Below, one piece after another: positions 2,153 to 49,772 of a stretch of DNA of 64,000 bases. Position 1 is the first letter of the stretch; the number at the start of each line of letters is the position of its first letter. Where the stretch lies: contig CAYHPR010000003.1 in NCBI GenBank assembly GCA_964358895.1, positions 14,473 through 78,472 of the forward strand, in the 5' to 3' direction. The stretch comes from Candidatus Micrarchaeota archaeon. Lineage in GTDB: Archaea; Micrarchaeota; Micrarchaeia; CABMEP01. The notes beneath the pieces are model-generated. The model was not told the DNA's origin. It saw only the letters and a list, made by a program, of their open reading frames with translations, and ran no database searches. The translations under genes were made by a program, and so were the position numbers.

Positions 2153-3385
2153 CTAAAATTCTACGTGTTTACCAGTTCCAACTGTTTCATCAGTCGATTC
2201 TTTCTTTTCTTCGCTTATCCTTCTTTCAATTATTTCTCTCTTTTCAACTTTTTTTTCTTTTTCCTTTGGTTTTTTTTCTTCTTTCTGCCTTTTTTCACCG
2301 CTTATTTCATAAGATTGTTTTCGTTTTCCAATTTGTGTTTCGTAGAACTCATTGACTAGCCTGCTTGCTTCAGCAGCAATTTGGCTAGACCTATCTTTTT
2401 CTTCTTGCTCACTAAGCCATTTATTAAATTTAGTCACATATCTGTTCAAAATATCGTTTAACTTACTTTTTTCTCCGTAGTCTACAATGTCCTGAGGTTT
2501 CTTAGTCTTCTTTTTCTTGACCCATTCGTCCATAAACTCTTTTTTGAGTTGTTCGACTGTTTTTTCTTTTGGTCTTTGTGAGTCTATAAATGCAAGATAT
2601 TCCTCAATTGTTTTGTTTCCGCTCACTTTTCCTATAACTGCTTGAAATAAATTTTTTGCGTATCCCTCTGCGTCATTTCGCCATTTATCTTCGTCAGTTT
2701 GTGGCTCTATCTTTATCTCCTTTACATTTATTGTACGTACTTCATCCAATTTCTGATCAGTCAAGAATGCAAGGCAACTCGCTTGGCGGTTCATTTCAGT
2801 TATTGCATTTTCATATTCTGTCAATTCTTTAGGTTTCGGATAAGTGTTTTGATCACATTCTCTAAGTTTCCATCCGTTCGGCCCCCAATCCTCTTTATCC
2901 CATCTAGCTTCTTGTTTCCATTTCGAGTTAGCTAATGTAGTTCCTTTAGTATACTCTTCAATAACTGGTTTCATTCCAAGTTTTTCTATTATCCTACTTA
3001 TCGCCCCATATTCTGATTCTGTGAGAATAAGCATCAATTTTGCATCTTTATTTTCATCGATAAGAAGCTTGTTTAGTTCTCGGTATTGATTGACATCTAT
3101 CGATCTATCCTTTTGTTGATAGTCTATTTGTTTTAAACATACTTTTGTTTTATCAATCAGTGTCATTGTTTCTTTGTAATCGTGATTAAGTTCTTTGTTT
3201 TTTTTCTGAGCTTTTTTTTCAACTTCGTAATATACTGCCATTACTTTTTCTTTCGTTTCTGCAGGTAGGCTTTCTGTCATTTTGTTAACGATTGCGTTCC
3301 GTAGTTCCTGGCGTTTTCTGAAGGCTTCTTTTTCTGTATCTATTTTCGGTGTTAGTAGTCTCGACACTCCCATTTTATCGCTCAT
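2153..3385 (-). CDS. hypothetical highly charged K/E-rich protein (410 aa)
   Basis: Long clean ORF lying just upstream of L15e on the same strand. Low-complexity KEKEKK tail. No recognisable catalytic motif. Confidence 0.5.
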   Translation of the reverse strand: MSDKMGVSRLLTPKIDTEKEAFRKRQELRNAIVNKMTESLPAETKEKVMAVYYEVEKKAQKKNKELNHDYKETMTLIDKTKVCLKQIDYQQKDRSIDVNQYRELNKLLIDENKDAKLMLILTESEYGAISRIIEKLGMKPVIEEYTKGTTLANSKWKQEARWDKEDWGPNGWKLRECDQNTYPKPKELTEYENAITEMNRQASCLAFLTDQKLDEVRTINVKEIKIEPQTDEDKWRNDAEGYAKNLFQAVIGKVSGNKTIEEYLAFIDSQRPKEKTVEQLKKEFMDEWVKKKKTKKPQDIVDYGEKSKLNDILNRYVTKFNKWLSEQEEKDRSSQIAAEASRLVNEFYETQIGKRKQSYEISGEKRQKEEKKPKEKEKKVEKREIIERRISEEKKESTDETVGTGKHVEF

Positions 3386-3524
3386 ACATCAATATCCAGT
3401 TTTCATTTATAAATTAATGTGTTTTACAACTTATTCGGGAAAATTTCAATCCCAAAGGTATTTATATGAGAAACGCATAACGTATTTAGTTAAGGACGAG
3501 GCGTGTGGGCGCCAGAGGGATTAT

Positions 3525-4994
3525 ATGGTTTCGATATTTGGAAGAAAGAAAAATACTAATCAAACAGATGATTCGGATAAGGATCAAGTCCGTTCAATCG
3601 TTACGCGACTGAGTGAGCGAATAAATAGTTCTAAGACAGATCTTGCAGCAATACAGCCCCTTATCTCAAATAAAGTGGCTGAAAAAGAAGATCTTCTAAG
3701 ACAACAGGCAGAAGCTAGACTTAAGCAAGAAGGCATTGAATACGATATAGTTTATACTGTAAGAACGGTTAATGCAGAAGTAGATCAAAATAAAAAAGAT
3801 CAAACATTAGTGGAAGAGTTGGGAGCACGTAAAGCGCTTCTAGAAGTAAAATGCAAGGCTCTGCAAACTAATCTTGATGAAGAAGCAGCATATTTCGCTG
3901 ATTTGCAAAAAAAGCACGAAGCAAACGTGAAAGAACTTTCTGGTAAACTTAAAAAAGCAGAAGCAGCTCTTTCTGACATTAATTCAAAGGAAACAAAAGA
4001 GCTTGTCGATGCAATTGAGAGACGTTCAAAAGAAGTGAATGAGGCACGTGATCAATTGAAGTTGCTTAAAGTACTTGATGATAAATCTGAAAAGAAAGAA
4101 CAGGCACCTCTCTTTTCAGATTCAACAAAGAGAAAAATACGTAAATCTATTGTAGGCGTAGCCGTTGTAGCTGCTGTATTTGGTCTCTATAAATTAGTCG
4201 AATGGGGTACTAATAAGAAGCTAGAAAGCATAAGAAACGCTGCGAGAGAGGAGTTATTAATTGAAAATGCTAAACAACGGAAAGAAGAACGAAGAAAACT
4301 TGCTGAGCAGACGGCGAAAGAGGAACAAGAAAAGCAGGCAAGCTTAAGTGAAAAAGAGCGAAATATGTTGAAGTATAATGCTAGAATGCCATTACTTATA
4401 GAGGAGCTTAATAAGATTGCATCAGATAAGAAAAATTCAAGGAACAAATTAGCTAAAAGAATAATACAATTAATCAATGAAACAAGCCAAGATGAGTATA
4501 GAACCTTGGTTTTGTTCATAGGTCACGCAGAAAGAGACCTATACAAGCAGGGCTGGAATGGAGATTATAATCAAGACAATTCTCTTAACGATCTAAAAAA
4601 GTATATTCTTAAAGAAAGAGAAGTCGCACAGGAACGTGCTAAGCCAAAAAAGATAACCGAGACAAAAGAGGCGCCTAAACAAGAGTACACGGATGCCCAA
4701 ATACAAAATTCTAAAGAGGTTATGGCTCGTTTATTGGTCGATGTCGTAGAATTAAAAGGGCAAGTGCCAGTCATTAGAACTGCTGACAATGCCAATGAAG
4801 TACTGAAGATTTTGACCAATATCTATCAGGGATCCCTACAGTCAGATGGTGTCGAGTTCATTCCAAACGTAGAAGTTAGAAAAGACGAGAACTCAGAAAC
4901 AACTAATATCAAAAATTATCTTGGTAAGCGCAAGGTTGTTCGTATCAGAGTTGTGGGCGACAGCAAGCTTGAAGCACAGATAGTTAAAAGATAG
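3525..4994 (+). CDS. coiled-coil protein with one central TM helix and a conserved C-terminal module (paralog A)
   Basis: The ATG at 3525 avoids overlap with the upstream minus-strand gene. Heptad-rich, charged sequence. Central hydrophobic helix SIVGVAVVAAVFGLYKLV. The C-terminal 90 aa are about 50% identical to the C-terminus of the next gene (KEVM..KG..DNA..VL..LT..YQGS..GV.F.P....VR.RVVGDSKLEA). Confidence 0.6.
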   Translation: MVSIFGRKKNTNQTDDSDKDQVRSIVTRLSERINSSKTDLAAIQPLISNKVAEKEDLLRQQAEARLKQEGIEYDIVYTVRTVNAEVDQNKKDQTLVEELGARKALLEVKCKALQTNLDEEAAYFADLQKKHEANVKELSGKLKKAEAALSDINSKETKELVDAIERRSKEVNEARDQLKLLKVLDDKSEKKEQAPLFSDSTKRKIRKSIVGVAVVAAVFGLYKLVEWGTNKKLESIRNAAREELLIENAKQRKEERRKLAEQTAKEEQEKQASLSEKERNMLKYNARMPLLIEELNKIASDKKNSRNKLAKRIIQLINETSQDEYRTLVLFIGHAERDLYKQGWNGDYNQDNSLNDLKKYILKEREVAQERAKPKKITETKEAPKQEYTDAQIQNSKEVMARLLVDVVELKGQVPVIRTADNANEVLKILTNIYQGSLQSDGVEFIPNVEVRKDENSETTNIKNYLGKRKVVRIRVVGDSKLEAQIVKR

Positions 4995-5079
4995 TAGTTA
5001 AATCAATTTTACTATCTTTTATTTTCATGCCTTCCCGTAAACATTTAAAAGGGAGGAGTGATCTAATACTCGTGAGGTC

Positions 5080-6756
5080 ATGGGTGATCGTACGCCAGTG
5101 CAAGCACAAAAAAAAGTTGAACCAAAAGTTAGCGATGTGCATAAAGTTGATGCGTCACTAGACCTTCTGTCGCTTTGGGTTGAACAAGGAAGAGGACAAA
5201 AAGGAAAGTTGGAACCTAATCGAGTTGTCAGTGCGTTGCTAATCTCAGATGATTTAAAGAAAGGTAATCAGTCCGACAGTGGCTTTAGAAGCGAAAAAGA
5301 TGCAGAAAAAATATTCTCTACCCTAAAAAATGTCGTCGGGATAACAGAAAAAGGAACAGTGTTCGAATTTAAAACCCGAGACGATATTATGTATCGTACA
5401 CGTTTATTTTTAAATGGTGAAAAAAGTTTTGTTCAGATTACACCTCTGCTTTCTCCACCGTTGGATCTTGCAGATCTCGAAGTTCGTATGAACGGCAAGG
5501 GATCTACCTATGAAGATGCAGCATTCGCAGTCCGCTTTTTGGCCGAAGGTAAAGGAGCAAGTACAATTCTTGTTTTTGACAGCCGAGAAACAGCCGAGAA
5601 ATTTGCTGAACGTTTTTCTACTATTGCAGGCGTTACTAATTTCGAACAGAATAAAATAATCAAGGTCACTCCTCAAATGGGACGGCCGGTAAGTGTTAGG
5701 CAGGGTGGTAATAAAGTTATGTTTGCAGGAGATATCCGACTTATTTACAAAGAAATTTGGAACGAACTAAAAACGCAGTTTGGCCGTGATGAAAGCGATT
5801 TCAAGAGTAAACCATTCGATATTCAGTTAACTGTCAGAAATAAGAACGCATTGGATGTCGCATTAGATGCAATTATTTTGGCCGGTTTCATGTCTACCAA
5901 CCAGAAAGTAGAATACTTGAGAGACGTTAATGACAAACTTACTAATATTTCAGCTGTAATAAGGACGGATCCGAAGGAGTATAAGAACCTTCTTAATAAA
6001 ATGCTAAATCAGCAAAAAATTTGGATTAATACATTTGATAAGGCAGACAGGTCAACCAAAGAAAGAATTATTTTTGAACTTGAAGATGAGTGGCGTAAAG
6101 CAGCTCAAGAACTAATAATCGAAGGGCCAGCCCATTATCTATACAAAGATTTACGAACACTGCGAGGGAAGGACCTTAGGGAGCTAAGGAATACTTTCGC
6201 TCTTAAATTAGGGATGAAAAAATTAGAATCTCCTCCGCAACCCGAACCTTCAGTTAAGAAATCGACAGCCAAAACTGATGAACGGGAAGTCGAAAAATTC
6301 GTAGACATCAAAGGTAAAAATGAGGAGAAAATTTTGGAGCTGCAAAAGTCTGGAAAGGATGTTCCAGTCCTAGAAGTTTCAGAAAAAGAAGCAGATAAAA
6401 TATTACAAGGGCTTATGACATTTAGAAAAACAGAAGAAAAGAAGGGCGTAAAAGAAAAAGTAGAAGAAAAGGCAGAAAAACTAAAGTATTCCTCTGAGCA
6501 GGTTGAGTCAGCTAAAGAAGTCATGAGTCAATTAAAGAAAGATCTTGTGGATATGAAAGGTATTTCGGTTACAAGAAAAGTGGATAATGCATCTGTCGTT
6601 TTAAGTGTTTTGACGGATCTTTACCAAGGATCAGTTAAGCAAGAAGGAGTCACATTCACCCCCTCAGATCTGCAGAAATTTCTAAAGAAAAAAGTTATGC
6701 GTGTCAGAGTCGTTGGCGACAGTAAGCTTGAAGCAGAAGTCATGAAAGCAGATTAA
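5080..6756 (+). CDS. soluble coiled-coil protein with the same C-terminal module (paralog B)
   Basis: A GGGAGGAG ribosome-binding site sits 8-10 nt upstream of the ATG. 558 aa with no TM helix. The C-terminal 90 aa are conserved with paralog A (MRVRVVGDSKLEAEVMK). Confidence 0.65.
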   Translation: MGDRTPVQAQKKVEPKVSDVHKVDASLDLLSLWVEQGRGQKGKLEPNRVVSALLISDDLKKGNQSDSGFRSEKDAEKIFSTLKNVVGITEKGTVFEFKTRDDIMYRTRLFLNGEKSFVQITPLLSPPLDLADLEVRMNGKGSTYEDAAFAVRFLAEGKGASTILVFDSRETAEKFAERFSTIAGVTNFEQNKIIKVTPQMGRPVSVRQGGNKVMFAGDIRLIYKEIWNELKTQFGRDESDFKSKPFDIQLTVRNKNALDVALDAIILAGFMSTNQKVEYLRDVNDKLTNISAVIRTDPKEYKNLLNKMLNQQKIWINTFDKADRSTKERIIFELEDEWRKAAQELIIEGPAHYLYKDLRTLRGKDLRELRNTFALKLGMKKLESPPQPEPSVKKSTAKTDEREVEKFVDIKGKNEEKILELQKSGKDVPVLEVSEKEADKILQGLMTFRKTEEKKGVKEKVEEKAEKLKYSSEQVESAKEVMSQLKKDLVDMKGISVTRKVDNASVVLSVLTDLYQGSVKQEGVTFTPSDLQKFLKKKVMRVRVVGDSKLEAEVMKAD

Positions 6757-6855
6757 TGGCTCGTTCCGTTTATCCTATCTTCTAATTATCCGTTAGCCGT
6801 CGTCTATTGCATTGTATATTGAAAGACTTAAATAGGTAAAACGCACTAAATATTC

Positions 6856-9800
6856 ATGTACACAACGAGTTTCAGGTCTATTAAAGCAATTAAGAAGTTT
6901 ATACTGCATCCTGTACGTAAGTTCATCACTTATCCACTAGTTTCTACTTTTCTTATGTATAATACTGTTCTTGGAACAGATCTGTCCCAGGAGAATGACA
7001 AATATTTAAAAAGAACAATTGATGCTACTATTATGGGAAGTGAAAAGGATATGGGTGGAGTCGTTGCGCAGAAAAAAGAAGAGGTAAAACCAATTACTTC
7101 AGCTCCTACTGTTGTCGGTATTATTGAAAAAGAGATCTATTCTTATCATCAAGCGAATGAAGAAATAAATGGTTTCAAAAGACAAGGATTAGAAACGTTA
7201 AATCAGTTCGATTCCTTATTTAACAGATCAAAAAAGTTTAACAAAGAAAAATCTTCTCAATTTATCGATGCAGACGGTAAGCCACAGTTAAGAAAAGCAT
7301 TAGATTGGTTAAACAAGAATATTGCAAAATTTGAAGATGCTCCAAGAACTGATGCTTATTTTTTACAGCGTTCTCTTGAAATTTTGGGTAAGTTTGAGGC
7401 ATCGGAAGAAAAAGTATTGGATTTACTTAAAAAAGTAGACAAAAGTTTTCAAGAAATCGGAATGGTTGAAGAGGTTCGTACAGCCATAATTGAGCATTAT
7501 CTGCCCATTTTTTATCAGGCTGGAAATATAATTGCAAGTCAAGCAGACAAACGTTCCTATGATGTAGCCGAAGGTAATGCCGATAATTTAACTAAATCCA
7601 TAGATAGGTGGCACACATTCATAAGCAAGTCAGAGTTTACCAAAGAGGATGTTGAAAGTTTCGTTAATGAACAGGATAACTTAGAAAAAGAAAATAAGAA
7701 AAATCATAACCTAGAAATTGATTTGACTAATCCTAAAAATGATATCTCAGGCTTCACGGATTATTCTAAATTCAAGAGAGTACCATTCGACCCAGGCCTT
7801 AATTACATTGGCAAATACTATTCAGCTTTGTTCTCGATACAATTTGAGAAACCAGAAAAACTGAGGAATATTAACTGGTACTATTTAAGTCAGACAGATT
7901 TTGGGTACGCAACCAACGTTACATTCCAATTAATGGATCAAGTTTACCAAGAAGGACTTCAAAGTGTAACTATTGTTAAAAAAGCACTCGAAGATTCGGT
8001 AGGTAAAAAAGTCAAAAAAGAAGAATTCAGATCAAATGCATTCTTACCTGAACGATTTGGCACGATAAGCGATTATTACAAAACTCAGCACAGAGATCTC
8101 AAAAATTTTGTAGGGCAGAGTTTTGATGAGTGGGTCGACATGTATAATCCGCCATATCCTCTTTTAGTCAAACTTAGACTTAGATTAGGAGAGCTTTATA
8201 CAAAAAGCATTTATCATGCAGTTAGAAATGAGAAATCAGAATTCGACCGTAACAAGAAAAGTTCAGAGCAGTTAGTCGCTGTTTTTGAAGAGACACTAAA
8301 ATCTTCTAAAAAATATACTATTGAACAACTTAAGAAATTGAACGGCGTTATGTTGACAGCTAGATCCGCTTCAGGATCTGAGCTTAGAGACATATTGCAC
8401 GATCAGTACGGTCTTGGAAATTTTTACGATTGGTTGGTCTTAAACAAAATCGATGTTGCCAAACTTCTTCTAACTATTCCTATAATTGAACCAGGTAGCA
8501 AAGAAGAGGTTTATCTGCGACACCCTCTTTATGGAAAACTCATGGACGTTTTTGTTACTTCCGTTTTTTATCCTCTTTCGAAAGAGCAAAAACCAAATAT
8601 GCCTTACTTATCAAAGGAAGGCGAACGTTATCCTCTTTTTGGTAATGTTCCTTTTCGTGAATTCATAGTTGGATCTGATAAAAAGATTACTGAAAAGACA
8701 AAGGTATCTGAAGTTGACAAAATAATTGAAGAGAAAAATAAAACATTAATTCCACTGCCGCGTGATATAATCCTAAATGCGAGACAAAGTAAAGAAGATA
8801 TTTCATTCTCACCTGGAGACTCATCAGTTAATACAAAGGTTGCGATCCAACCATACACTTTCGATCTAGTTTCGCACAAATATTCTAAAACAGACAAGGT
8901 TCATGATGAAGAAGCAATCTCCTTTACACCTGGAGTAAGAACAACAATCTTCGGAGTTCCAGTCAATCTGACTATGTCAGACGAGTGGGGTGCAGATATC
9001 CCTGCGTATCTATTGAGAAATCCATTCGAAAAAGACTTTAGGAATCAGAGATGGGATGCATCCTATGAACAGGTTAAATTCACAAAAGATGATCAAACAA
9101 TCGAAATAACTTATTCAGACATAAGTAGTTTCGATCAATTCGTTCTCCAAAATAAAGGATGGAATAAAGAAGGAAATATATATTCCAAAGGGAAGTACAA
9201 GTTGACAATAGGTGAAAATGATTTCGTTTTGAGCGATACAAAGCAAGAAGTTTCCATTAAGATTCCAAAAGATTTTTCAGAGTATGCTAGACCAGAAGAT
9301 AAGGATAAAAAAAGAATTCGATACGGGACAGAGGGTGTTAAAGTAGACATGCCTAGATACTATGCAACTTTCAAATCAAACAAAGCACCCGTATCTGCTG
9401 AGATACCGTTGACATCTGCCCACGGAGATGTGCGTTTCATTAAGAGCTGGTTTTGGTTAAACAGATCTATTGTATCTGTGCCAGGAGACGGACTGAAGGC
9501 AGGACAGGACTTCCATGTTAAATCAATAGTTTCAAGAGAACCAACTCAAAGAACATTTTCTTTAGGTGTTAGAACTGGAGGATATTCAGCATATCAGACA
9601 AAAAGTGAGATTGAAACTAACTTACCTCCTTCTCTTTCAATTCAACCTCCAGTTTCTGTTTCTAGGACGATCAATCAGCAGCTTTCTTTTGTCAATACTG
9701 CATTTATTCCAAATCCGATAGTCTTGAAGAATTTGGGGATTAAAGCAGGAGATATTTTATCAGCTGCAGATTCATTGAAGAATTATGTAGATGTAATGCA

Positions 9801-10926
9801 ACAGAATGCTACAAATATTAATCACGGAAATGCAGAGCTTGAAGCATATCAGTTATCAGTTCACGAATTATTCACAAAACTTTATCCAAAAGCAAAGGTG
9901 TCTGGTGAAATTAAGAACGTACTTGATCAGTATGCAAGAGATGGGCTTCTCACTGACAAAGTGGTTAACGCGCTCAAAGATGCAAATCTGATCGCAATAC
10001 CAAACGGATCAACAACAGAAAGGACGGTTAAGCAGGACGTAAGTTTCAATATTCAATCATTCCTGCTTCGATTTACAAAAGTTAAAGGAGTTGTATTAGG
10101 TGCAGGTGGAGGATTCGGTGATGTTAAATTTGACTATGAAATAACTGCACCAGTTCCAAGAATGAAACAAGAGTATTCTTCACTATTGAAGAGAGACGTG
10201 TTCCTGCCAGAAACAGACAACGAAGGAAGGCCAATACTGGACAAAAAGACATTCAATTTTTCAACTTCTGAAAAGATTAAAGGGCCAATAATCCAGATTG
10301 AGGGCAAACGTACAGCTGCTAGAATGGAATGGTTATTTTCGGAATCTGTTGATGTAAAGAATCTTATCAAGTCCGGTCCAGCTGTTGCAGATGTTCCGAT
10401 CGATCTTTTCAAAAAGAAATACAACAGTATTCTCGATCTTGCACAATTGATAACTCTCCCGTTGGTTCCAACAATTAATTCAGTCAAAGTAACTGGCCAG
10501 CTCGGAGAAATGAGTTCATTAAGACTTGCTTGGGATGTTGCACACGTTCCTATGTCCGAACTTCCATTCTACGGACAAAAAATAGGCGAACAGGTATTGG
10601 ATCGATTCCCAAACTGGCTTAGAAGAATGATTCCAGAAGTTAAGGAGATTCCTTTTGGTGCAACAATCGGATTTGTTGCTGAGAAACAAAAGGCAGGAAG
10701 TATTGAGGTTGATTTTGAAAAATATGCGAATGCAAAGATCCAGTTTGGTCCAGAAGCTATCCGATTCTGGTGGATGACGACAGTCGGAAGAAAGGATCAA
10801 GAGATTAGGCAATATGGAATGTCTGTCGACCTTCAGCAAGCATTCCAAAAGAAATGGCTTCCACTCAGAGCATTTGCGTCTAAGGGACAAGACAATACGC
10901 ATATTGGTGTTGAACTAACTTGGTAA
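6856..10926 (+). CDS. giant orphan protein (about 1300 aa), no signal peptide, no P-loop
   Basis: Uninterrupted 4-kb ORF co-directional with and tightly spaced after paralogs A and B. No TM segment, no Walker A motif and no recognisable enzymatic motif. Ends in IGVELTW. The true start may be an internal Met, since the first 60 aa are odd. Confidence 0.6.
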   Translation: MYTTSFRSIKAIKKFILHPVRKFITYPLVSTFLMYNTVLGTDLSQENDKYLKRTIDATIMGSEKDMGGVVAQKKEEVKPITSAPTVVGIIEKEIYSYHQANEEINGFKRQGLETLNQFDSLFNRSKKFNKEKSSQFIDADGKPQLRKALDWLNKNIAKFEDAPRTDAYFLQRSLEILGKFEASEEKVLDLLKKVDKSFQEIGMVEEVRTAIIEHYLPIFYQAGNIIASQADKRSYDVAEGNADNLTKSIDRWHTFISKSEFTKEDVESFVNEQDNLEKENKKNHNLEIDLTNPKNDISGFTDYSKFKRVPFDPGLNYIGKYYSALFSIQFEKPEKLRNINWYYLSQTDFGYATNVTFQLMDQVYQEGLQSVTIVKKALEDSVGKKVKKEEFRSNAFLPERFGTISDYYKTQHRDLKNFVGQSFDEWVDMYNPPYPLLVKLRLRLGELYTKSIYHAVRNEKSEFDRNKKSSEQLVAVFEETLKSSKKYTIEQLKKLNGVMLTARSASGSELRDILHDQYGLGNFYDWLVLNKIDVAKLLLTIPIIEPGSKEEVYLRHPLYGKLMDVFVTSVFYPLSKEQKPNMPYLSKEGERYPLFGNVPFREFIVGSDKKITEKTKVSEVDKIIEEKNKTLIPLPRDIILNARQSKEDISFSPGDSSVNTKVAIQPYTFDLVSHKYSKTDKVHDEEAISFTPGVRTTIFGVPVNLTMSDEWGADIPAYLLRNPFEKDFRNQRWDASYEQVKFTKDDQTIEITYSDISSFDQFVLQNKGWNKEGNIYSKGKYKLTIGENDFVLSDTKQEVSIKIPKDFSEYARPEDKDKKRIRYGTEGVKVDMPRYYATFKSNKAPVSAEIPLTSAHGDVRFIKSWFWLNRSIVSVPGDGLKAGQDFHVKSIVSREPTQRTFSLGVRTGGYSAYQTKSEIETNLPPSLSIQPPVSVSRTINQQLSFVNTAFIPNPIVLKNLGIKAGDILSAADSLKNYVDVMQQNATNINHGNAELEAYQLSVHELFTKLYPKAKVSGEIKNVLDQYARDGLLTDKVVNALKDANLIAIPNGSTTERTVKQDVSFNIQSFLLRFTKVKGVVLGAGGGFGDVKFDYEITAPVPRMKQEYSSLLKRDVFLPETDNEGRPILDKKTFNFSTSEKIKGPIIQIEGKRTAARMEWLFSESVDVKNLIKSGPAVADVPIDLFKKKYNSILDLAQLITLPLVPTINSVKVTGQLGEMSSLRLAWDVAHVPMSELPFYGQKIGEQVLDRFPNWLRRMIPEVKEIPFGATIGFVAEKQKAGSIEVDFEKYANAKIQFGPEAIRFWWMTTVGRKDQEIRQYGMSVDLQQAFQKKWLPLRAFASKGQDNTHIGVELTW

Positions 10927-10982
10927 CCTGCGAAGAGCAGACATTAAAAAGATAAGTTACTTGATCTATAGATCCTGATTGT

Positions 10983-12755
10983 ATGTCGAAAAGTATCAAA
11001 GCTATAACGTGTATAAACACGAGATTATCCCAACGTTTTTCCTATCTATCAGTCTTCATTCTATTTCTAACATTTTTTTCGTTTTCAGGAACAGTTTCTG
11101 CACAATCCCGTACTCAAGTATACGTCGCACATTACGGCGATGTAGAGTATTACGGTATTTCACTTGGAAACAACTTCGCAGTTTCGCAAAATGCTAGTGT
11201 CGGAGGAACTGCAGTTACAAATGGATCAAATGTTTGTACAGGTTCTTCGTTGGACGTCACAGTGCTTAATGCCTCTACAACCACTGAACTGTCAAATTCA
11301 AAAGTATCCTGTGCTCTTGACTGTACAAGTCCTGATACCACTTCCGCTTTGACAGCGTTTCCTCTTCCGATATTATGGCAAAGTTCCGGTACATATTCAT
11401 CTAATGTTAATAGTTACTCTCCTCCGAATGCAGGGGATAGCTTTTGTAAGGGTCCGTTCGATACGCCACAGCCTCCAAATCCATTGGCACCCAACACAGA
11501 AAATGTGAATTACGATATAATAGGGATCGATAAAGGAACTGCACGTGCTAATTTAGGACTTTTCTGTTACGGAAGTACACAGACTTCACTTGATGGCTCT
11601 TCAGTTAGTTCACCAGTTGGTCTTAACACTAATGGATCAAAAACCTTGTTAAGTTCTATGATTGTCAACGAATGCTCCATGTTAGTTCGATCTTATGAGA
11701 ATCCAGGGTTCCAAGGCAAACCCTGGACTGCTGATTGTTTATATTCACCAGTTGGAGGATTTTTTCCTTTAACTACAGCGTCTACAACCACATTCAACGT
11801 TGTCAGAGGAGTTAATCTCACCGGCCCTTTTGGCAGTTACACTGCAAATCCAAGCAGCACAATGATCATCACTTTGCCAGTTACAAATACAGGCGATTTA
11901 GGTGCATCCGTTACAGGTATTTCACTTTCAGCAGGGTTCACAGTCAATAGTATTGTACCCGCACTTCCTGTAACCGTGGCTGCTGGTACTTCTACATCCT
12001 TCACAATTAATGCATCAACGCCCGCAGTAGCAGGAAATTACACTCCAAATGCCACAGTAACCTTCACTCCAACACCAGCAGCGATTGGTGCGTGTGGTGT
12101 GGCAGGTTCAACTGCAAGCGTATCGATCGGCAACATAGTAGTTGCGCCGGGTGTTGTGCCAGGCGGTGGCCCGAGTGGCGGTGGCCCTGGTTGCGTATCA
12201 GGTATCACTACTCCGCTCAGCATAACGATGCGAGCAACTCCAGCCTCTCTCCTTAATACACTACTTCTTTCTTCTCCACCAAATGTCAACAATGTTACAC
12301 TTGTTGCAGAAATAAGCAGGCCAAACAGCGGTTGCATCGGAAACGACATAAAAGCAAATATAACGGTTTACAGTTACAACGCATCCGGTCAACGCAATAT
12401 AGTGAGGTATAAATCTACAGATTTTTCATGCATTGATGCAGGCGTGTCTAGGAAGAATGCGAAAACATGTTATCCAGCATCCTCAGTTGATGGCAGCAAC
12501 TGTATTTATTCAATGTCACCGTCAAATAGTCCTGGTGTCAGTTCAGCATTTAATTTCACAGTCATACAGCCATTCCTTTATTCAGCAACACAATCTTCAG
12601 TTTGTCCGGCAGATCAATACGGAATATTCAACTCTCCTTTTTCCGATTCTATCTATGAGGCTGAGATTAGCATATCTGATCCAATCGCCTCTTCCACTCA
12701 GACACGTTCAACTTTCTTCGGAATCTACGGATTAACATGCCAAGAAAGAGCATAA
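10983..12755 (+). CDS. secreted Cys-rich, sequon-rich surface glycoprotein candidate
   Basis: N-terminal signal peptide (FSYLSVFILFLTFFSFSGTVSAQS). More than 25 N-x-S/T sequons, S/T/G/N/P-rich, and a GGGPSGGGPG linker. Locally GC-rich, about 60% in the 12.1-12.2 kb stretch. Confidence 0.6.
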   Translation: MSKSIKAITCINTRLSQRFSYLSVFILFLTFFSFSGTVSAQSRTQVYVAHYGDVEYYGISLGNNFAVSQNASVGGTAVTNGSNVCTGSSLDVTVLNASTTTELSNSKVSCALDCTSPDTTSALTAFPLPILWQSSGTYSSNVNSYSPPNAGDSFCKGPFDTPQPPNPLAPNTENVNYDIIGIDKGTARANLGLFCYGSTQTSLDGSSVSSPVGLNTNGSKTLLSSMIVNECSMLVRSYENPGFQGKPWTADCLYSPVGGFFPLTTASTTTFNVVRGVNLTGPFGSYTANPSSTMIITLPVTNTGDLGASVTGISLSAGFTVNSIVPALPVTVAAGTSTSFTINASTPAVAGNYTPNATVTFTPTPAAIGACGVAGSTASVSIGNIVVAPGVVPGGGPSGGGPGCVSGITTPLSITMRATPASLLNTLLLSSPPNVNNVTLVAEISRPNSGCIGNDIKANITVYSYNASGQRNIVRYKSTDFSCIDAGVSRKNAKTCYPASSVDGSNCIYSMSPSNSPGVSSAFNFTVIQPFLYSATQSSVCPADQYGIFNSPFSDSIYEAEISISDPIASSTQTRSTFFGIYGLTCQERA

Positions 12756-12848
12756 TCTACTACTTTTATGCGGTGTGAAACCACCGCTCTATTTTAACTA
12801 GAAATAAGTGCAAAACTTGTAAGCAGCACAATCATTAGATCAGATCAA

Positions 12849-13142
12849 GTGGGAACAGATATACTTATAAATAAGTGGGATGATATTATTAATATGACAA
12901 GTGGGGCCGAATATATTTTATTGCCGGTTGACAAAAAAGGCAGGATACATCTTCCAAAAAAGCTACGTGAAGACTTAGGCATTAGTGAGCACGTTGTTGC
13001 TGAAAAAGAATCAGATATGTTAATTCTTAAACCTACAAAGAAGATTTCAGATCCTCTAACATTTCTTACATCTTTTCAGATAAAAACAAAAAAGACTCCT
13101 GTCGAAATGAAGCGAGAGGCTGAGGAAGGATTTGGGAGATAA
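12849..13142 (+). CDS. AbrB/SpoVT/MazE-family antitoxin (VapB-like)
   Basis: Swapped-hairpin motif ILLPVDKKGRIHLPKKLREDLGISEH. Overlaps the downstream PIN gene by 11 nt. Confidence 0.55.
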   Translation: MGTDILINKWDDIINMTSGAEYILLPVDKKGRIHLPKKLREDLGISEHVVAEKESDMLILKPTKKISDPLTFLTSFQIKTKKTPVEMKREAEEGFGR

Positions 13143-13536
13143 GATGCGTTACTATCTTGATGCCGACATATTACTTGCTTTACTAAAGCAAAATGACCAT
13201 TTAAAGCAAAAAGCTAACAGATGGATTGCAGACAATAAAGACAAAAATGAACTAATAACTTCATCATTATCCTGTTTAGAAGTGTTATTCTATCTCTATA
13301 AAAACGGTCTGTCCGAAAATGCATTGGACATCATAAGGGCCATATCCATATTGTGCAAGGTTACTTATTTCAATTTTCAACATATAGAACAATCCATCAT
13401 TCTTTCTGAACATCACTCTCTTAGTCCAGCAGATTCTATACATGCAGTTCTGGCTATGAACTATGATGCAATTATTAGTAGTGATAAGTCATTTGATAAA
13501 GTTCATAATCTAACTCGGATCGATTTCACAGCTTAA
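13132..13536 (+). CDS. vapC: PIN-domain nuclease (VapC-like toxin)
   Basis: N-terminal YLDADILL with an acidic residue, a later SSLSCLEV, and a C-terminal DAIISSDKSFD. Acidic-residue spacing is typical of PIN domains. Translationally coupled to the upstream AbrB-like gene. Confidence 0.6.
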   Translation: MGDKMRYYLDADILLALLKQNDHLKQKANRWIADNKDKNELITSSLSCLEVLFYLYKNGLSENALDIIRAISILCKVTYFNFQHIEQSIILSEHHSLSPADSIHAVLAMNYDAIISSDKSFDKVHNLTRIDFTA

Positions 13537-13579
13537 GGATAAATTTAAAAGACCTCTATGAATATCTAGAGTAGATAGT

Positions 13580-14308
13580 ATGTTTGAAACATTCGGACAC
13601 TCATTGCAGGTTTATTTCAAGTACCTAACTATGATTCTTTTCTTTTCCATTCCTTTCGTTATTGCTCTCTTGCTTCCATATCTGTCGCCAGCACCAGTTT
13701 TCAGCGCGCTAGGAGGATACTTCTTAAGATCTGGAAGCCTTCCAGAGCTCCAATTAGCTGACTCTTTGATTATTATCGTTATTTCCCTTCTCTCCCTAGC
13801 CTTCCTTTCACTAGCACTCGTGGCAATCAATCTAGTAGTCAAGTCCAGCAGAACAAGAACAAAAGTAAGCGCAGAAGCCTTGAAAAGTTTAGGTAAATAC
13901 ACGGCAGTTGTACTTGCTATTTTTGTGGCTGTTAAGGTCGTTGAGACGCTGATCCTTCTTTATGTAATAGGTTCAGGTGTTTCAGAATTGCCAGTTTTCA
14001 TTTTCTCTTTCCTTTCCACATTAGGCCTTTTCTATGTGGCACCGGCAGTCGTTCTTGAGGAAAAGAAGCCGGCGCCTGCCTTTATCGCAAGTTACAAAAA
14101 TATCCTTATCAAGCCACTTCATTTCATCCTCTGGCTAGTAGTCGCATTCCTTCTGGTATATGTTGTTTCTTCAATCTCATTTGCACTTTTCACAGAAACA
14201 GCCCTTAGGCAAGGATTCATTGTTTTAGTCAATTCCTTATTCGTCCTGCCATTTCTAGTAATCCTTCAGGCACAGATGTATATCGCGAAGTATACGCTGA
14301 TAAAATAA
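13580..14308 (+). CDS. hypothetical polytopic membrane protein
   Basis: Six or more hydrophobic helices. No recognisable motif. Confidence 0.4.
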   Translation: MFETFGHSLQVYFKYLTMILFFSIPFVIALLLPYLSPAPVFSALGGYFLRSGSLPELQLADSLIIIVISLLSLAFLSLALVAINLVVKSSRTRTKVSAEALKSLGKYTAVVLAIFVAVKVVETLILLYVIGSGVSELPVFIFSFLSTLGLFYVAPAVVLEEKKPAPAFIASYKNILIKPLHFILWLVVAFLLVYVVSSISFALFTETALRQGFIVLVNSLFVLPFLVILQAQMYIAKYTLIK

Positions 14309-15844: not shown

Positions 15845-16055
15845 ATTATTGATAATATCCTTGTATAAACGTATCTAACATGCTCTCAAATACGGTCGGC
15901 AAATCTATCCTATCTGTCACCTTCCTCCTTAATCTAATTGTATAAGTGCAGTATACGCTAGTTATATGCTGATATAATACTCAGGTACATTATAATGTTT
16001 ACGCAGTCTACTTTAGATATCTATTAATAAGTTATATTCTTCTTAATAATCTCAT

Positions 16056-17735
16056 ATGCGTTTTATTTTTTTTAAACATCTAAGTAAGATTAATATGACT
16101 ATACTGCTAAGTCTTTTTTTATTTATTTTTTTGATACTAGGCTTGATTGAGATAAACAGCCTATCTTTTACAGTTGATGAACCTGCACATATAATTTCAG
16201 GGTTTTTATATAATACTGAAAAAGATTTTAGTTTTGAAAAAACACACCCTCCTTTAATAAAATTAATGGCTACAGCTATTCCTGCCGTTTTATTAGATCT
16301 AAAACGATCAGATACTGGAGAATATAGCATATCCAGATTTTTCTTTTATAACGAAGAAAACTTCGAAGAGTTAGTTTTTTTTTCTAGAGCATTTATTTTG
16401 TTATTGTCTATCTCTCTTATTATTTTTATTTATAAATTTTCCTCAGAACTTTCTAATTCTAAAATTGGGCTTTTTGCAGTATTTTTATATATCTTCGAAC
16501 CGACCATAATGGCTAATTCAACTTTAGTTACTACTGATTTCGGAGTAGTTATTTTTGTTTTTTTATCTATTTATTTTTTATATTACTTCAAAAAAAACTT
16601 ACATAAATGTGTCTCCTGGAAATTTTTATTCGCGTCATTTTTTTCGGTCGGACTTGCTATTACATCGAAATTTTCTGGGTTGCTGGTTATGCCTATCTGG
16701 TTAGTATTATTTTTTTATAAAAACAATTTAAGTCTATATAAAAAATTTTTTATTATTTTCATTTTTTTATTTACAATTCTACTCACTATTAATTTTTTAT
16801 ATTCTTTTGATCGAGATTATAAATTTGCATATGACTGTAATGAAAATAAAAGCAATTGCCTTATAATATTTAATACTCCTGTTTTTGTTCCATTACCTGA
16901 AAAATTTGTAGAAGGTTTAAATTTAGTCAGAATCCATGCTCAAACTGGACATCCAGCATATCTATTTGGTGAGTATTCAGAAAAAGGTTGGTGGTATTAC
17001 TATCCGATTGCCTTTTTTATAAAAACACCAATTCCATTATTATTATTTATATTTTTTGGAGTTTTATTTATACTTAGAAGAAAGCGTCCCGTCTTTTTAT
17101 TTTTAGTTGTACCCATACTTTTATTTCTATTCTTTTTTATGTTTTTTAATAAAATTAATATTGGAATTAGACACATATTACCCATATACCCTTTTCTAGT
17201 TATTCTAGCAAGTCATTCATTCTATCTTATTAAAAATAAATATATTTTTTTCTTACTTTTAATCTGGTATTTTCTTGCTTTTATTTCTGTTTTTCCATTT
17301 AATTTAACTTATTTTAATGAATTAATAGGTGGGCCTATTAATGGGCCGAAAGCTTTACTTGATTCAAATATAGACTGGGGGCAGGACCTTAAATTCACAA
17401 GAGATTACATAAATAATAATCAAATAAAAGAGTTCTATTACGGACGAGCTATTGAAGAAAATAGTATCTACCCTTTTTTACTATATATTGATTCTAATAA
17501 AATAATCAATAAGCCATTCTGTTATCAAAAGAAGATTGGAACCTATATAGTTAATGTTAACACACTATATGCGTTGTATGGTGTAGGTCCTGATGCAAAC
17601 TATTCTCACCAGACTAAAATTCCCCCCGATTTAACTATCTATCGTCCACCTGAAGACTGTTATATCTGGCTTCGCAATGAGACTCCAATTCATATTATAG
17701 GGAATTCGGTCTATGTATATAATTTAACCGAATAA
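16056..17735 (+). CDS. GT-C fold glycosyltransferase (PMT/ArnT-like)
   Basis: Motifs FTVDEPAHIISGF and KTHPPLIKLM match the DE...HPPL signature of GT39/ArnT. Many TM helices. An alternative start is the ATG at 16095. Confidence 0.6.
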   Translation: MRFIFFKHLSKINMTILLSLFLFIFLILGLIEINSLSFTVDEPAHIISGFLYNTEKDFSFEKTHPPLIKLMATAIPAVLLDLKRSDTGEYSISRFFFYNEENFEELVFFSRAFILLLSISLIIFIYKFSSELSNSKIGLFAVFLYIFEPTIMANSTLVTTDFGVVIFVFLSIYFLYYFKKNLHKCVSWKFLFASFFSVGLAITSKFSGLLVMPIWLVLFFYKNNLSLYKKFFIIFIFLFTILLTINFLYSFDRDYKFAYDCNENKSNCLIIFNTPVFVPLPEKFVEGLNLVRIHAQTGHPAYLFGEYSEKGWWYYYPIAFFIKTPIPLLLFIFFGVLFILRRKRPVFLFLVVPILLFLFFFMFFNKINIGIRHILPIYPFLVILASHSFYLIKNKYIFFLLLIWYFLAFISVFPFNLTYFNELIGGPINGPKALLDSNIDWGQDLKFTRDYINNNQIKEFYYGRAIEENSIYPFLLYIDSNKIINKPFCYQKKIGTYIVNVNTLYALYGVGPDANYSHQTKIPPDLTIYRPPEDCYIWLRNETPIHIIGNSVYVYNLTE

Positions 17736-18818
17736 TCAATATTTTATGATTTGTTCATAAAATATTTGTTGGTTTAAGGCTATTTTATCCCAGGTAAGTT
17801 GTCTTGCAAAAGTTCTAGCAGAATCTCCGAGTTTTTTTCTTAATTTTTTATTTTCGGACAGTAGTAATATTTTTTTTGCAAGATTATTTGAATTTAAATT
17901 TTTTAATATAATGCTTCTTTCAGATGATGCATTTGTTATTGCAGAGCTTGCAATAATCGGTTTACCGCATGCAAAACTTTCAAGTGATACTATCGGATCT
18001 CCTTCAAACCTAGACGGACAACATAAAAACATTGAATTTGAAATAAATGACAACTTTTTGTCACCATTCATACGGCCTACCATCCTTATTCTTTGTTCTA
18101 GCTTCATCTGTTTAATCATTTTTTCCAACTTATACTTCTGTAAACCGTCCCCTATAATTATAAGATTTAAATCGGTTTTATCTTTTATTTTTGCAAATGC
18201 ATCAATAAGAACATCCAATCCTTTTTGATATATGTCCAATCGTCCAATGTACAATATATAATCTTTTTCACTCCGTTTTAAATTTAAGAGTGTCTTGTCT
18301 ACTCCATTAGGTATTACCTTAATATTGGTTTTTTTACCTTTTCTTACTTGACATATCTTATTTTTAATATCCTCAGATACTACTATATAATTATCGTAAA
18401 ATTTAGGATAAATTTTTTCATAAAATTTTGCAATAATGCCTACGGGGCCATAAGCTAGGGCATGATTTTCATATATGTTGCAAATTGAACACACAGTCGG
18501 AATATCAGTTTTTTTAGGAAAAAATGGTGAGAATGCAGATACATCCTTTACCAATAAATCACAATCATTCGAATAGTTCATACTTTCAAGTGAAAAGGAT
18601 ATCTTATTTAAAATAAAATTAGAAGAAGGCCATCCCAGAAATTTATAACGGATATTCTCTAATTTTTTTTCTTTGGGCGAATAAGGATATCTCCCGCTAT
18701 AAACTGTTATTTCATTATTATTATTTAAACGTCTATAAATCTCATGCGTTCTAGACGCTTGTCCTCCATCAAGCCATGGGTTATTAAAACTATCATAAAT
18801 AAAATGTTTTATTCTCAT
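17736..18818 (-). CDS. GT4 family glycosyltransferase (GT-B)
   Basis: C-terminal RFEGDPIVSLESFACGKPIIAS matches the EX7E motif of retaining GT4 enzymes. Confidence 0.7.
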   Translation of the reverse strand: MRIKHFIYDSFNNPWLDGGQASRTHEIYRRLNNNNEITVYSGRYPYSPKEKKLENIRYKFLGWPSSNFILNKISFSLESMNYSNDCDLLVKDVSAFSPFFPKKTDIPTVCSICNIYENHALAYGPVGIIAKFYEKIYPKFYDNYIVVSEDIKNKICQVRKGKKTNIKVIPNGVDKTLLNLKRSEKDYILYIGRLDIYQKGLDVLIDAFAKIKDKTDLNLIIIGDGLQKYKLEKMIKQMKLEQRIRMVGRMNGDKKLSFISNSMFLCCPSRFEGDPIVSLESFACGKPIIASSAITNASSERSIILKNLNSNNLAKKILLLSENKKLRKKLGDSARTFARQLTWDKIALNQQIFYEQIIKY

Positions 18819-19082
18819 TGAATTATTTATACTTTAATTTATATAAACTTACTTTAATTAATTTGTAATCCCATTATTCAATGTTTCTCAGCGATAAAAA
18901 CGAAATCCGAAGAAAGAACCCATACAGTAAGTTTACCGAAGTGAAAAAGAAGGAAATGAAGCTAAAACTCATTGTTCACAATCTTATACTAAACTACGGA
19001 AAAACTTATTTTTCAGTCGTGAGGAGTTTTAACAGAGCCTACTAAAACAAATATTTAAATAGTAGTTAATCATATTATTCCT

Positions 19083-20402
19083 ATGAATAAATCCGTGAAA
19101 AAAGCAGTTATAGGGTTGTCAATTCTTTCTATTAGTTTTTCTTCATATCTATTAACCGAAACATTTAGGAGTAAAACTAATAAATTCGTCAAACAGGAAA
19201 ATATTATTGAACAGGCAGAAAAAAATATTGAAAAGATAAGAAAAGGAAAATTTATAATTAATTTTATAAATAAATCTGGTCAGCCAATAAAAAATACAGA
19301 CATTTCCGTTAATCAGTTATCGCATAATTTTAAATTCGGAGGAGCACTTAGTTTATATAACGATAAAAATTATGATAAATATAAAGAAGAATTCTTAAGT
19401 TTATTTAATTATGCAACTTTTGAAACGGCATTAAAATGGAAAATTTTAGAACCAACAATTAATGAATACGATTATGGCTGGGCGGATAATCTATTGGATT
19501 GGTGCAAAAAAAATAACATTGCAGTTAAAGGCCATGCTGTTTTATGGGGGAATAAAAAATGGGGTTTACCTGATTGGTTACAACATTTAGATAATAAAAA
19601 AGTTGAACAAAGAATTGATTTACATATTAAATCCATAATGAATAGATACAAAGATTACATTAAAATATGGGATATTATCAATGAACCATTGACGGATGAA
19701 TTTTTTGGAAATATTGCTAAAGATTATGCTGAAAACGCACTCATTACGGCACGTAAAATTGATCCTAAGGCTAAATTAGTTATTAATGAATTCGGAGTTA
19801 TACATAATAGAGCTAAAAGAGAAAGATTTTATACATACCTCAATAAACTAAAAGAAAAAAATATACCGTTCGATATTATTGGTTTACAAGCACATGAACC
19901 AGTCAATGGTTTTTTCGATTTTAATGAGGTTGCCAATACTTTAAATTATTTCGGAGCATTGGGAAAAGAAATACATATAACTGAATTTGCAGTTCAAACA
20001 AAAAATATTGATGGTTCTTATACTAATGTAGCCGAAAGCCTAATTCAAGGAAATTGGAACGACGATTTACAAGCGTATTATTATGAAAATTTTTATAAGA
20101 TATGTTTTGGTAATGAACATGTTAGTTCTATAACTCTCTGGGCTTTATTCGATGATCGATCATGGTTACTTGGAAGCGGCTTATTTGATAATTATTATAA
20201 GCAAAAAAAAGCATATTTTGTATTAAACAATCTAATAAATACAAAATGGAAAACCAAGGGGTTATATAAGACAAACAAAGAGGGTCAAATAAATTTCAAT
20301 GGTTTTTTTGGAAAATATTCAATAAAAGTTGAGGGATTTAAAACGGAGCACTTTATTAATTTAGAATCGGCCAACTTAACTTATAATCTCTCTATCGAAT
20401 AG
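19083..20402 (+). CDS. GH10-like glycoside hydrolase (beta-1,4-xylanase fold) with N-terminal signal anchor
   Basis: ALKWKILEP, WDIINEPL (acid/base Glu), LQAHEP and EIHITEFAV (nucleophile Glu) follow the order and spacing of GH10 catalytic motifs. Hydrophobic N-terminus. Confidence 0.6.
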   Translation: MNKSVKKAVIGLSILSISFSSYLLTETFRSKTNKFVKQENIIEQAEKNIEKIRKGKFIINFINKSGQPIKNTDISVNQLSHNFKFGGALSLYNDKNYDKYKEEFLSLFNYATFETALKWKILEPTINEYDYGWADNLLDWCKKNNIAVKGHAVLWGNKKWGLPDWLQHLDNKKVEQRIDLHIKSIMNRYKDYIKIWDIINEPLTDEFFGNIAKDYAENALITARKIDPKAKLVINEFGVIHNRAKRERFYTYLNKLKEKNIPFDIIGLQAHEPVNGFFDFNEVANTLNYFGALGKEIHITEFAVQTKNIDGSYTNVAESLIQGNWNDDLQAYYYENFYKICFGNEHVSSITLWALFDDRSWLLGSGLFDNYYKQKKAYFVLNNLINTKWKTKGLYKTNKEGQINFNGFFGKYSIKVEGFKTEHFINLESANLTYNLSIE

Positions 20403-20658
20403 AATAAACTAACGGGCGGCATTTAGACTTTTAAATAGTTTTCTTTCAAGAAGAAGAAAAAATTTGGATGAGCGTTTTTTTTTAATATTTAATTTTAGTT
20501 AAATTACCTCAGCAACTATCCAATTAACGTTAATTTTCTATGATAATTCAAAGAATATGTAATAAATCTAGTTAATTCATTTTCCATAATCTCTTATATT
20601 TTTATATTATCTTTAATACAGGAAACTATTAAAAAACATAAGTCTATCAAGTACTCTA

Positions 20659-21591: not shown

Positions 21592-21614
21592 AATAATCTT
21601 GGAAAAGTTTTACA

Positions 21615-23963: not shown

Positions 23964-23991
23964 GGTCTATTATGCCGCATTACGCAAATGA
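22819..23991 (+). CDS. GT4 glycosyltransferase, tandem copy 2 with native C-terminus
   Basis: Same protein as 21615-22859 over about 373 aa. Ends EVYYAALRK. Confidence 0.7.
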   Translation: MKILRIFLNAPPFKGGAENRIHEISKVLAKKHKITVLTGGIPEGKEKVVDGIRYIYFGDMNIFTGFKNDSLSEMIKWLIDVSRYIFFKNINIKRFEGTYLRAMADWLNKNGKDYDIIINEFTPGAIRPISNYPYSLNVIHLRYSLFDTFEKSTKFGWKFNWLEVPYYYLFQQFLFLTNKNFIVCKTDDANAIHFLNKNAKIKVIHPAADPSLRKAKTEEKNFILYMGRIDKYQKGLDLLLEAFAELNCKEKLVVAGDGYDLLELKEKVKDLDIKNRVKFVGWVAGNSKRKLLTKCKFVVMPSRIEGLSLTSLEAAYCGKAILGTNAVAHGLPNVYLIELNKQDIYRGLITLLNNSKLRKKLGNKGRKAANKFSWESSAGLEEVYYAALRK

Positions 23992-23994
23992 ATT

Positions 23995-27054: not shown

Positions 27055-27163
27055 GAATTGTTATAATTGTTCAATAGTAGATAGTTTAGTTAATATATGT
27101 TTTATGCAGCTATAGTTATTAATAATCCTATGGAGTCTATAACATACAGTTTATGGTTTATTA

Positions 27164-28662: not shown

Positions 28663-28773
28663 TTAAATTTTATAAAAATGTAAAGGTATGGATTTTAAGT
28701 AGACGGAATGCTTAAAAATTAAACCGCCAGTATTAATGTGTGGCATATCCAGATTGTTTTTGAGTTGAGAGTT

Positions 28774-29643: not shown

Positions 29644-29742
29644 AGTAATCTAAGCATAACTCTCCTAGTTATTCATCTGTATAAATTAACATCTACTGGA
29701 AGCAATTTAAACTTACTTATTCGAAGAGCAAATAGTGAGCGA

Positions 29743-31035: not shown

Positions 31036-31040
31036 TTTAT

Positions 31041-32561: not shown

Positions 32562-32596
32562 AATTTATTTATCATATGCTATGTTTTAAACATAGT

Positions 32597-49762: not shown

Positions 49763-49772
49763 GGTGAGTTGA

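Follow-up and report, generated by a model that had tools for sequence, protein, structure and literature searches.

A 1,356-residue singleton protein in a block of orphan genes of a groundwater Micrarchaeota archaeon

The longest gene in a 64,000-nt stretch of DNA from a groundwater Micrarchaeota archaeon, a member of the DPANN group, is an open reading frame (ORF) on the plus strand at positions 6856 to 10926, which starts with ATG and runs without interruption through 1,356 codons to its stop (a 4,071-nt open frame). The whole stretch is referred to here as the window, and its runner-up, at 41851 to 45627, encodes 1,258 amino acids (aa). A first-pass annotation, which drew on the sequence alone, had singled out the giant ORF as a cytoplasmic orphan without recognisable motifs and had proposed that such proteins are frequently structural scaffolds or components of defence or virus-derived systems. 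The presence of PsmA, SBDS, Rrp4, Rrp41 and Rrp42 genes at 48986 to 52841 on the plus strand shows that the DNA of the window belongs to an archaeal chromosome, and the giant gene is the fourth of five consecutive orphan genes that together occupy ~10.6 kb (2153 to 12755). The gene itself, its candidate promoter and the regions that can be distinguished in its product are as follows.

6856-10926, plus strand: coding sequence of the singleton orphan, 1,356 aa, 154.9 kDa, isoelectric point (pI) 8.75, grand average of hydropathy -0.47
6828-6834, plus strand: TATA-like box TTAAATA, 28 nt 5' of the ATG, a candidate archaeal promoter; the transcript would be leaderless or have a short leader
6922-6978, plus strand: residues 23-41 (FITYPLVSTFLMYNTVLGT), 19 uncharged, weakly hydrophobic residues behind a basic N-terminus
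7033-7035, plus strand: Met60, an alternative in-frame ATG preceded at -28 by a TATA-like TTTAAA, which could act as an internal promoter
7036-8775, plus strand: residues 61-640, a predicted, mainly amphipathic alpha-helical half (helical moment z = 4.7; z = 2.4-4.0 per 150-aa block)
8776-9735, plus strand: residues 641-960, predicted to be beta-rich with amphipathic strands (period-2 moment z = 3.6; z = 2.7 for residues 751-900)
9736-10005, plus strand: residues 961-1050, a predicted short helical segment between the beta-rich parts (moment analysis; the low-confidence AlphaFold2 model places helices at protein residues 937-1042)
10006-10923, plus strand: residues 1051-1356, a predicted mixed beta/alpha C-terminal region (beta windows z = 2.1-3.0) that holds the glycine loop GAGGGFGDVKFDYEIT and the terminus HIGVELTW

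The giant ORF is a genuine, intact and natively encoded gene. We scored the frames with a codon table derived from conserved genes of the window. The log-likelihood per codon was -3.85 in the annotated frame versus -4.43 and -4.66 in the two shifted ones, and the annotated frame scored highest in all 44 of the 44 sliding windows of 60 codons, so that a hidden frameshift can be dismissed. ORFs that overlap genes of the region in the wrong frames or on the opposite strand reach ~130 aa at most. The GC content at the first, second and third codon positions (0.47/0.34/0.30) is that of the core genes, and the GC content of the gene as a whole (0.34 to 0.40) is like that of the core part of the window at 40 to 64 kb; the island at 16 to 33 kb lies at 0.26 to 0.30. 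Low-complexity residues account for 51 of the 1,356 residues (4%).

The only other public copy comes from an independent assembly, in which European Nucleotide Archive contig Hain_H52_02um_R2_13138 (ERZ1292622), obtained from 0.2-um filtered groundwater of the Hainich well H52, corresponds to window positions 8359 to 13628 (5.27 kb). This contig is 100% identical to the window save for a 10-N scaffold gap that replaces 11 bases at 10742 to 10752. The gap made the gene caller cut the giant protein into pieces of 805 and 50 aa, and a frameshift or pseudogene suggested by this split call was ruled out, given that the split is the work of the gap. Thus, the signs of decay that the first-pass annotation had proposed to look for were found neither in the frame analysis nor in the second copy. 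The gap had a further consequence. The 90% cluster of the giant protein has two members, the full-length protein, which is encoded on an NCBI contig of 90,269 bp, and the 50-aa piece, and it is the latter that serves as cluster representative, which is why a first homology search missed even the query itself. We take this as a practical warning that a fragment created by an assembly gap can hide a full-length protein from any search based on representatives. A search for population variants from which to derive a ratio of nonsynonymous to synonymous substitutions (dN/dS) found none, all clusters being singletons and the only other contig being identical.

Across several very large databases, amounting to about 15 billion known proteins, we detected no relative of the giant protein, be it a housekeeping protein or any other, which strongly supports the earlier description of an orphan without recognisable motifs. 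Nothing matched in a word-indexed search that covered 5.8 billion clusters. An exhaustive phmmer search of 1.84 billion representatives, for which residues 157 to 1356 served as the query (residues 1 to 156 being covered by the word-indexed search only), returned the protein's own 50-aa fragment as its sole match. At the level of contigs, 185,579 species genomes, IMG/VR and the JGI metagenome contigs contained no relative, and tblastn searches of 50,697 records of phages and archaeal viruses and of 72,556 plasmids were equally empty. Among curated families (Pfam-A, NCBIfam, PHROGs and PADLOC), neither the giant protein nor any of its four orphan neighbours had a match, the best Pfam score of the giant protein being that of DUF762 with E = 0.085 and 12.9 bits (cut-off 25). 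A sequence search of the PDB returned only chance coiled-coil matches to haemagglutinin HA2 (E = 0.4 to 0.7) for the giant protein and nothing for the neighbours. As judged by sequence, then, the giant protein is a strict singleton, unrelated to anything known. DPANN genomes commonly encode hypothetical proteins that are confined to one lineage, and what is new in the present case, at the sequence level, is the complete absence of detectable relatives and not a demonstrated new mechanism.

The first-pass annotation had left open whether translation starts at an internal methionine and had suggested looking for a ribosome-binding site. No Shine-Dalgarno-like motif precedes Met1, and the TATA-like box 28 nt upstream has comparable counterparts 21 to 39 nt 5' of many genes in the window, while inside ORFs just 2.5% of comparable positions carry a TATA-like hexamer. 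A TATA-like box in the absence of a Shine-Dalgarno-like motif is typical for leaderless or short-leader transcripts of archaea. In addition, codons 1 to 59 carry an in-frame codon signal (-3.88 versus -4.39 and -4.73), which supports a start at Met1. Met1 is thus the favoured start; Met60 also has a TATA-like box, and a shorter isoform that begins there and is devoid of the weakly hydrophobic N-terminal stretch is possible.

The composition of the giant protein is unusual in one respect, namely that it contains no cysteine, where the remaining proteins of the window would predict 9.9 (P about 5e-5). Otherwise, 27.1% of its residues are charged, 16.7% are lysine or glutamate, and N-glycosylation sequons occur at chance density. 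Regular-expression checks confirmed that Walker A/B and HExxH motifs are missing, as had been noted before, and were equally negative for GxSxG, DEAD/H, CxxC, LPxTG and PGF motifs. The C-terminus ...THIGVELTW and the glycine loop GAGGGFGDVKFDYEIT (residue 1082; 10099 to 10146) are both present as described, and the reported lack of a transmembrane (TM) helix holds as well: on the Kyte-Doolittle (KD) scale, no 19-residue window reached 1.6, the maximum being 1.54. Self-BLAST revealed no internal repeat, and the window contains no paralogue.

For a view of the overall architecture, we relied on hydrophobic-moment analysis calibrated against shuffled sequences, the results of which are given with the regions listed above. 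AlphaFold2 models computed from the single sequence in two segments were unusable as folds (mean predicted local distance difference test score, pLDDT, 33.4 for residues 1 to 640 and 30.6 for residues 640 to 1356; predicted template modelling score 0.19), a low confidence that is explained by the lack of an alignment. Their low-confidence secondary structure nonetheless concurs with the moment analysis in that residues 1 to 640 are nearly all helix and strands appear in the beta-rich part. We infer from these patterns that the protein has two halves: the N-terminal ~600 residues would form amphipathic alpha-helices, and the C-terminal ~700 would be rich in beta-strands. The small share of low-complexity residues speaks for a folded protein.

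The giant gene is embedded in a block of genes that are as devoid of known relatives as itself. To the left, the block is bordered on the minus strand by the genes for ribosomal protein L15e (1596 to 2117), the RNase P subunit Rpp30 (1109 to 1603) and Pop5 (112 to 471); to the right follow a VapB/VapC pair, PMT-type glycosyltransferases and a low-GC island of glycosyltransferase genes. The four other members of the block, named here after the lengths of their ORFs, are listed below.

2153-3385, minus strand: p410, an orphan with 40% charged residues, rich in lysine and glutamate, oriented divergently from the rest of the block and with no export signal
3525-4994, plus strand: p570, a lysine- and glutamate-rich orphan of 489 aa with one central TM helix (IVGVAVVAAVFGLYKLV) and a C-terminal module at 4671-4991
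5080-6756, plus strand: p558, a predicted soluble, cysteine-free orphan with no export signal or TM helix and with a C-terminal module at 6460-6753
10983-12755, plus strand: p590, an orphan that begins 56 nt 3' of the giant gene, with a signal peptide, 42% serine, threonine, glycine and asparagine, and 16 cysteines

Three starts were considered for p570: TTG at 3282 (the mechanical ORF), ATG at 3417 (the public call, 525 aa) and ATG at 3525 (489 aa). The last is the likelier one because the other two overlap p410 or its TATA-like promoter region (3386 to 3445). The C-terminal module of p570, ~100 aa in length, is shared with p558 at 43 to 49% identity (...VRIRVVGDSKLEA...) and is also visible at the DNA level as a repeat, D1, at 4932 to 4976 and 6691 to 6735. 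None of the databases searched, metagenomes included, contained a relative of this module. As for p590, its signal peptide suggests that the protein is presumably secreted to the surface.

The L15e gene offered a handle on the closest sequenced locus. L15e of the window is 81% identical to that of 'uncultured archaeon LFW-242_1', followed by Micrarchaeota metagenome-assembled genomes (MAGs) at 49 to 60%. The LFW-242_1 genome, a MAG of 0.97 Mb with a GC content of 57%, belongs to the Micrarchaeota, where it is labelled 'LFWA-III related' (PMC8561730). Despite the 81% identity of L15e, this GC content is far from the 35 to 36% seen here. When we compared synteny around L15e over 80 archaeal loci, only that of LFW-242_1 showed a comparable arrangement; the other Micrarchaeota loci have no conserved gene at this position. 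In LFW-242_1 (CABMEP010000062.1, 2997 to 9805), a singleton of 1,225 aa adjoins L15e, together with orphans of 476 and 514 aa.

The two giants have much in common: both lie beside L15e on the same relative strand with orphans of ~500 aa nearby, both are singletons, and they are similar in length (1,225 versus 1,356 aa), in charged residues (28.5 versus 27.1%), in lysine plus glutamate (15.8 versus 16.7%) and in cysteines (one in the mature part versus none). In both, a helical tendency gives way roughly to a beta-like one towards the C-terminus, and the last residue is aromatic (...SFKLLGGYKF versus ...GVELTW). In contrast, the LFW-242_1 giant has a strong signal peptide that is absent from the protein studied here, and the neighbouring genes of its locus, which differ in order and orientation, show no detectable homology; a profile of the p570/p558 module likewise found no match among them. 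Word-indexed searches that used the LFW-242_1 giant as a bridge, or the p570/p558 module, returned the query's own record or nothing. The position beside L15e might either be occupied by genes that diverge beyond recognition or be a hot spot that gains unrelated large genes. A different giant orphan in the nearest genome is the pattern expected for fast-evolving machinery of partner contact or virus resistance in ultra-small archaea, an aspect of these organisms that is understood less well than any other.

The indications of where the giant protein resides point both ways. Our test for a signal peptide was a crude comparison of hydropathy only (the best 12-residue KD average). The N-terminus of the giant protein reached 1.56, which is within the soluble controls, versus 2.4 to 2.8 in three genuine signal peptides, those of p590, of the 1,258-aa protein of the window and of the LFW-242_1 giant. 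The earlier statement that a signal peptide is missing is therefore probably right; what keeps it from being certain is the weak stretch at residues 23 to 41, which could be a weak signal-anchor or a plain buried helix. Similarly, the assignment to the cytoplasm stands in so far as the composition looks cytoplasmic, and falters on the LFW-242_1 analogue, which matches it in composition yet carries a clear signal peptide. We had considered composition as a classifier of localisation and rejected it as decisive, since the presumably exported LFW-242_1 giant is composed alike; a protein with a strong signal and near-identical composition means that composition cannot exclude export of the protein studied here.

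Very large proteins that are confined to single organisms have been described in other DPANN archaea. The SPEARE-type surface proteins of Nanohaloarchaeota, such as SVXNc_0300 with 9,409 aa, were proposed to mediate interaction with the host (PMC10266531). Like the giant protein, they are very large and organism-specific, and they are encoded in variable regions of DPANN genomes of ~1 Mb. Unlike it, they carry a Sec signal, tandem immunoglobulin (Ig)/fibronectin-like domains and VirB4/TraG-like ATPase domains, with a VirB4-like ATPase gene next door; they are also acidic (pI about 4 versus 8.75) and six to seven times longer. Of these features, the giant protein displays no convincing Sec signal by crude hydropathy, no Pfam match, no Walker A/B motif and no repeat by self-BLAST. 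Closer in phylogeny, the micrarchaeote Mia14 encodes strain-specific secreted surface-layer proteins with PKD, beta-propeller or CARDB domains (PMC5498576). These belong to the same phylum and are likewise large, strain-specific and responsible for a noticeable share of a small genome. However, they are recognisable by their PKD, Kelch/YVTN and CARDB domains and their secretion signals, whereas the giant protein has neither a Pfam domain nor a convincing signal. On these grounds it belongs to neither group.

Taking locus and protein together, we propose that the giant protein is a fast-evolving, non-enzymatic structural protein of a lineage-specific membrane or envelope complex that it forms with its neighbours, a tentative reading to which we would assign a probability of roughly 0.4. 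It draws on the TM and secreted proteins in the block, the docking-like module, the surroundings rich in envelope biogenesis and the extreme divergence; the term non-enzymatic reflects the lack of any catalytic or nucleoside triphosphatase (NTPase) motif. In such a complex, p570 would serve as a membrane-spanning, coiled-coil-like anchor, p558 as a soluble paralogue that bears the C-terminal docking module of p570, and p590 as a secreted surface component, with the giant protein acting as a scaffold or contact element, and the whole block may evolve too fast for homology to survive. Divergence of this degree is typical of, and expected for, the proteins with which episymbiotic DPANN archaea build their envelopes and contact their hosts, the surface proteins of Mia14 and the SPEARE-type giants being examples. 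The ~45 kb around the giant gene are rich in glycosyltransferases and include an S-layer-like protein. With regard to the cost, a putatively host-dependent DPANN archaeon with a genome of ~1 Mb spends 4 kb on the giant gene and ~10.6 kb on the block of five orphans. Of the classes named by the first-pass annotation, a structural scaffold is the most plausible one for a large, non-repetitive protein that lacks catalytic and NTPase motifs and has coiled-coil-like neighbours, and it can be put forward as inference only.

Several observations weigh against an envelope complex. A convincing signal peptide or TM helix is missing from the giant protein, whose composition resembles that of the soluble enzymes of the window, opposite to the two clearly secreted proteins, which have 9 to 17% charged residues and are rich in cysteine. 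Neither PKD, CARDB nor Ig domains, as expected for adhesion, turned up in the Pfam scan, and AlphaFold2 yielded no usable three-dimensional model. Each of the five genes in the block has its own TATA-like box, and no homology ties the five together. Finally, the LFW-242_1 giant is alike in position and composition only: the best BLASTP match between the two proteins had E = 2.3, and Smith-Waterman alignment calibrated by shuffling gave z = 0.86 for the full length and z = -0.9 for the C-terminal 350 aa, as for an unrelated control.

Some of the same facts would suit a role inside the cell, be it as a scaffold in the cytoplasm or as part of a new defence system; the protein might then act together with its coiled-coil-like neighbours or with the toxin-antitoxin pair next to the block. 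We consider this role unlikely, yet it is the most serious competitor of an envelope complex. Such a role fits the lack of a convincing signal peptide or TM helix, a composition like that of the soluble proteins of the window and the absence of export signals from p558 and p410, and there is a VapBC pair ~1.9 kb downstream as well as a HEPN/nucleotidyltransferase pair elsewhere in the variable region. However, PADLOC recognised neither the giant protein nor its neighbours, the only defence-like genes nearby being the separate VapBC pair, and the protein contains no nuclease, NTPase, protease or Walker motif. Moreover, the block includes a secreted and a membrane protein, and the positional analogue of the same composition in LFW-242_1 carries an export signal. 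An origin from an integrated archaeal virus or mobile element, of which the block would be a remnant and the giant ORF a virion or element structural protein, appears more improbable still. Five orphans in a row over ~10.6 kb beside a toxin-antitoxin pair would be in keeping with it, archaeal viruses being rich in orphan genes, but GC content and codon usage are native, none of the proteins scanned matched an integrase, a capsid or a packaging protein, the window contains no tRNA gene and no att-like flanking repeat, and neither IMG/VR nor the tblastn searches of viral and plasmid records described above produced a match. We therefore rejected a mobile-element origin, for which no hallmark (tRNA gene, att-like repeats, viral or plasmid similarity) was present. 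Taken together with the empty PADLOC and PHROGs scans, these results give no support to the earlier suggestion of a defence or virus-derived component.

Two further possibilities lie at opposite ends of the scale of ambition. That the giant ORF is non-functional, whether a decaying pseudogene or an untranslated ORF, is effectively excluded. The absence of homologues deprives us of evidence for purifying selection, but an open frame of 4,071 nt cannot persist without selection in a genome of 36% GC in which spurious ORFs end at ~130 aa; the codon signal is even over the full length, a promoter-like box is present, low complexity is confined to 4% of the protein, and the seeming split in the Hainich contig is a scaffold-gap artefact. 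At the other end, the block might encode a hitherto unseen envelope-spanning or host-contact apparatus, whose giant component would be exported by a non-classical route and anchored by a C-terminal beta-barrel-like domain ending in HIGVELTW as a bacterial-type beta-signal, with the LFW-242_1 giant as a hyper-diverged counterpart. We regard this as a very long shot. Bacterial outer-membrane beta-barrels and autotransporters have a C-terminal beta-signal that ends in an aromatic residue, and the giant protein resembles them in being free of cysteine, in its amphipathic C-terminal strands and in that HIGVELTW fits the pattern polar-x-G-x-x-hydrophobic-x-aromatic. By chance, the pattern is expected at 0.5% of positions; it occurs at the C-terminus of 1 of the 55 proteins of the window, five of which end in an aromatic residue, so that the fit counts as a lead rather than as evidence. 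Unlike outer-membrane barrels, the protein lacks a strong signal peptide and belongs to an archaeon, and to our knowledge no beta-barrel assembly machinery is known in archaea. No outer-membrane protein, autotransporter or TamB-like family was recognised in it by Pfam or NCBIfam, the amphipathic beta periodicity in residues 1051 to 1356 is raised to a modest degree only (z = 2.1 to 3.0), and AlphaFold2, at a pLDDT of 30.6 for residues 640 to 1356, produced no barrel model. If it were true, finding a membrane protein of the beta-barrel type in the envelope of an archaeon would be remarkable.

The wider surroundings of the block merit a brief description. The archaeal 'exosome superoperon' is split in the window, with the Pop5-Rpp30-L15e part at 112 to 2117 on the minus strand and the PsmA-Rrp42 part at 48986 to 52841 on the plus strand, ~47 kb apart. 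Between the two halves lie the orphan block, toxin-antitoxin pairs, a glycosylation island and an S-layer-like gene. The toxin-antitoxin-type pairs comprise an AbrB/MazE-like gene with a PIN gene (VapBC) at 12849 to 13536 and a nucleotidyltransferase gene with a HEPN gene at 45763 to 46721. The S-layer-like gene, at 41851 to 45627 on the plus strand, encodes the second giant of the window, whose 1,258 aa have no Pfam match, are rich in serine, threonine and glycine and include 20 cysteines; with an N-terminal hydrophobic signal or anchor and, at the other end, a TM anchor (...ALIAIAIFVVLVVVSIVLLMRREKG), the protein resembles a surface protein of the S-layer type.

The low-GC island (26 to 30%) extends from 16000 to 33000 and is full of glycosyltransferases of the PMT_2, GT1/GT4 and GT2 families. 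It also contains a GH10 xylanase-like gene at 19083 to 20402. Two adjacent GT4 genes, at 21615 to 22859 and 22819 to 23991, have near-identical Pfam scores, which suggests a tandem duplication. Just past the island, a GH15-like protein of 889 aa is encoded at 32597 to 35266.

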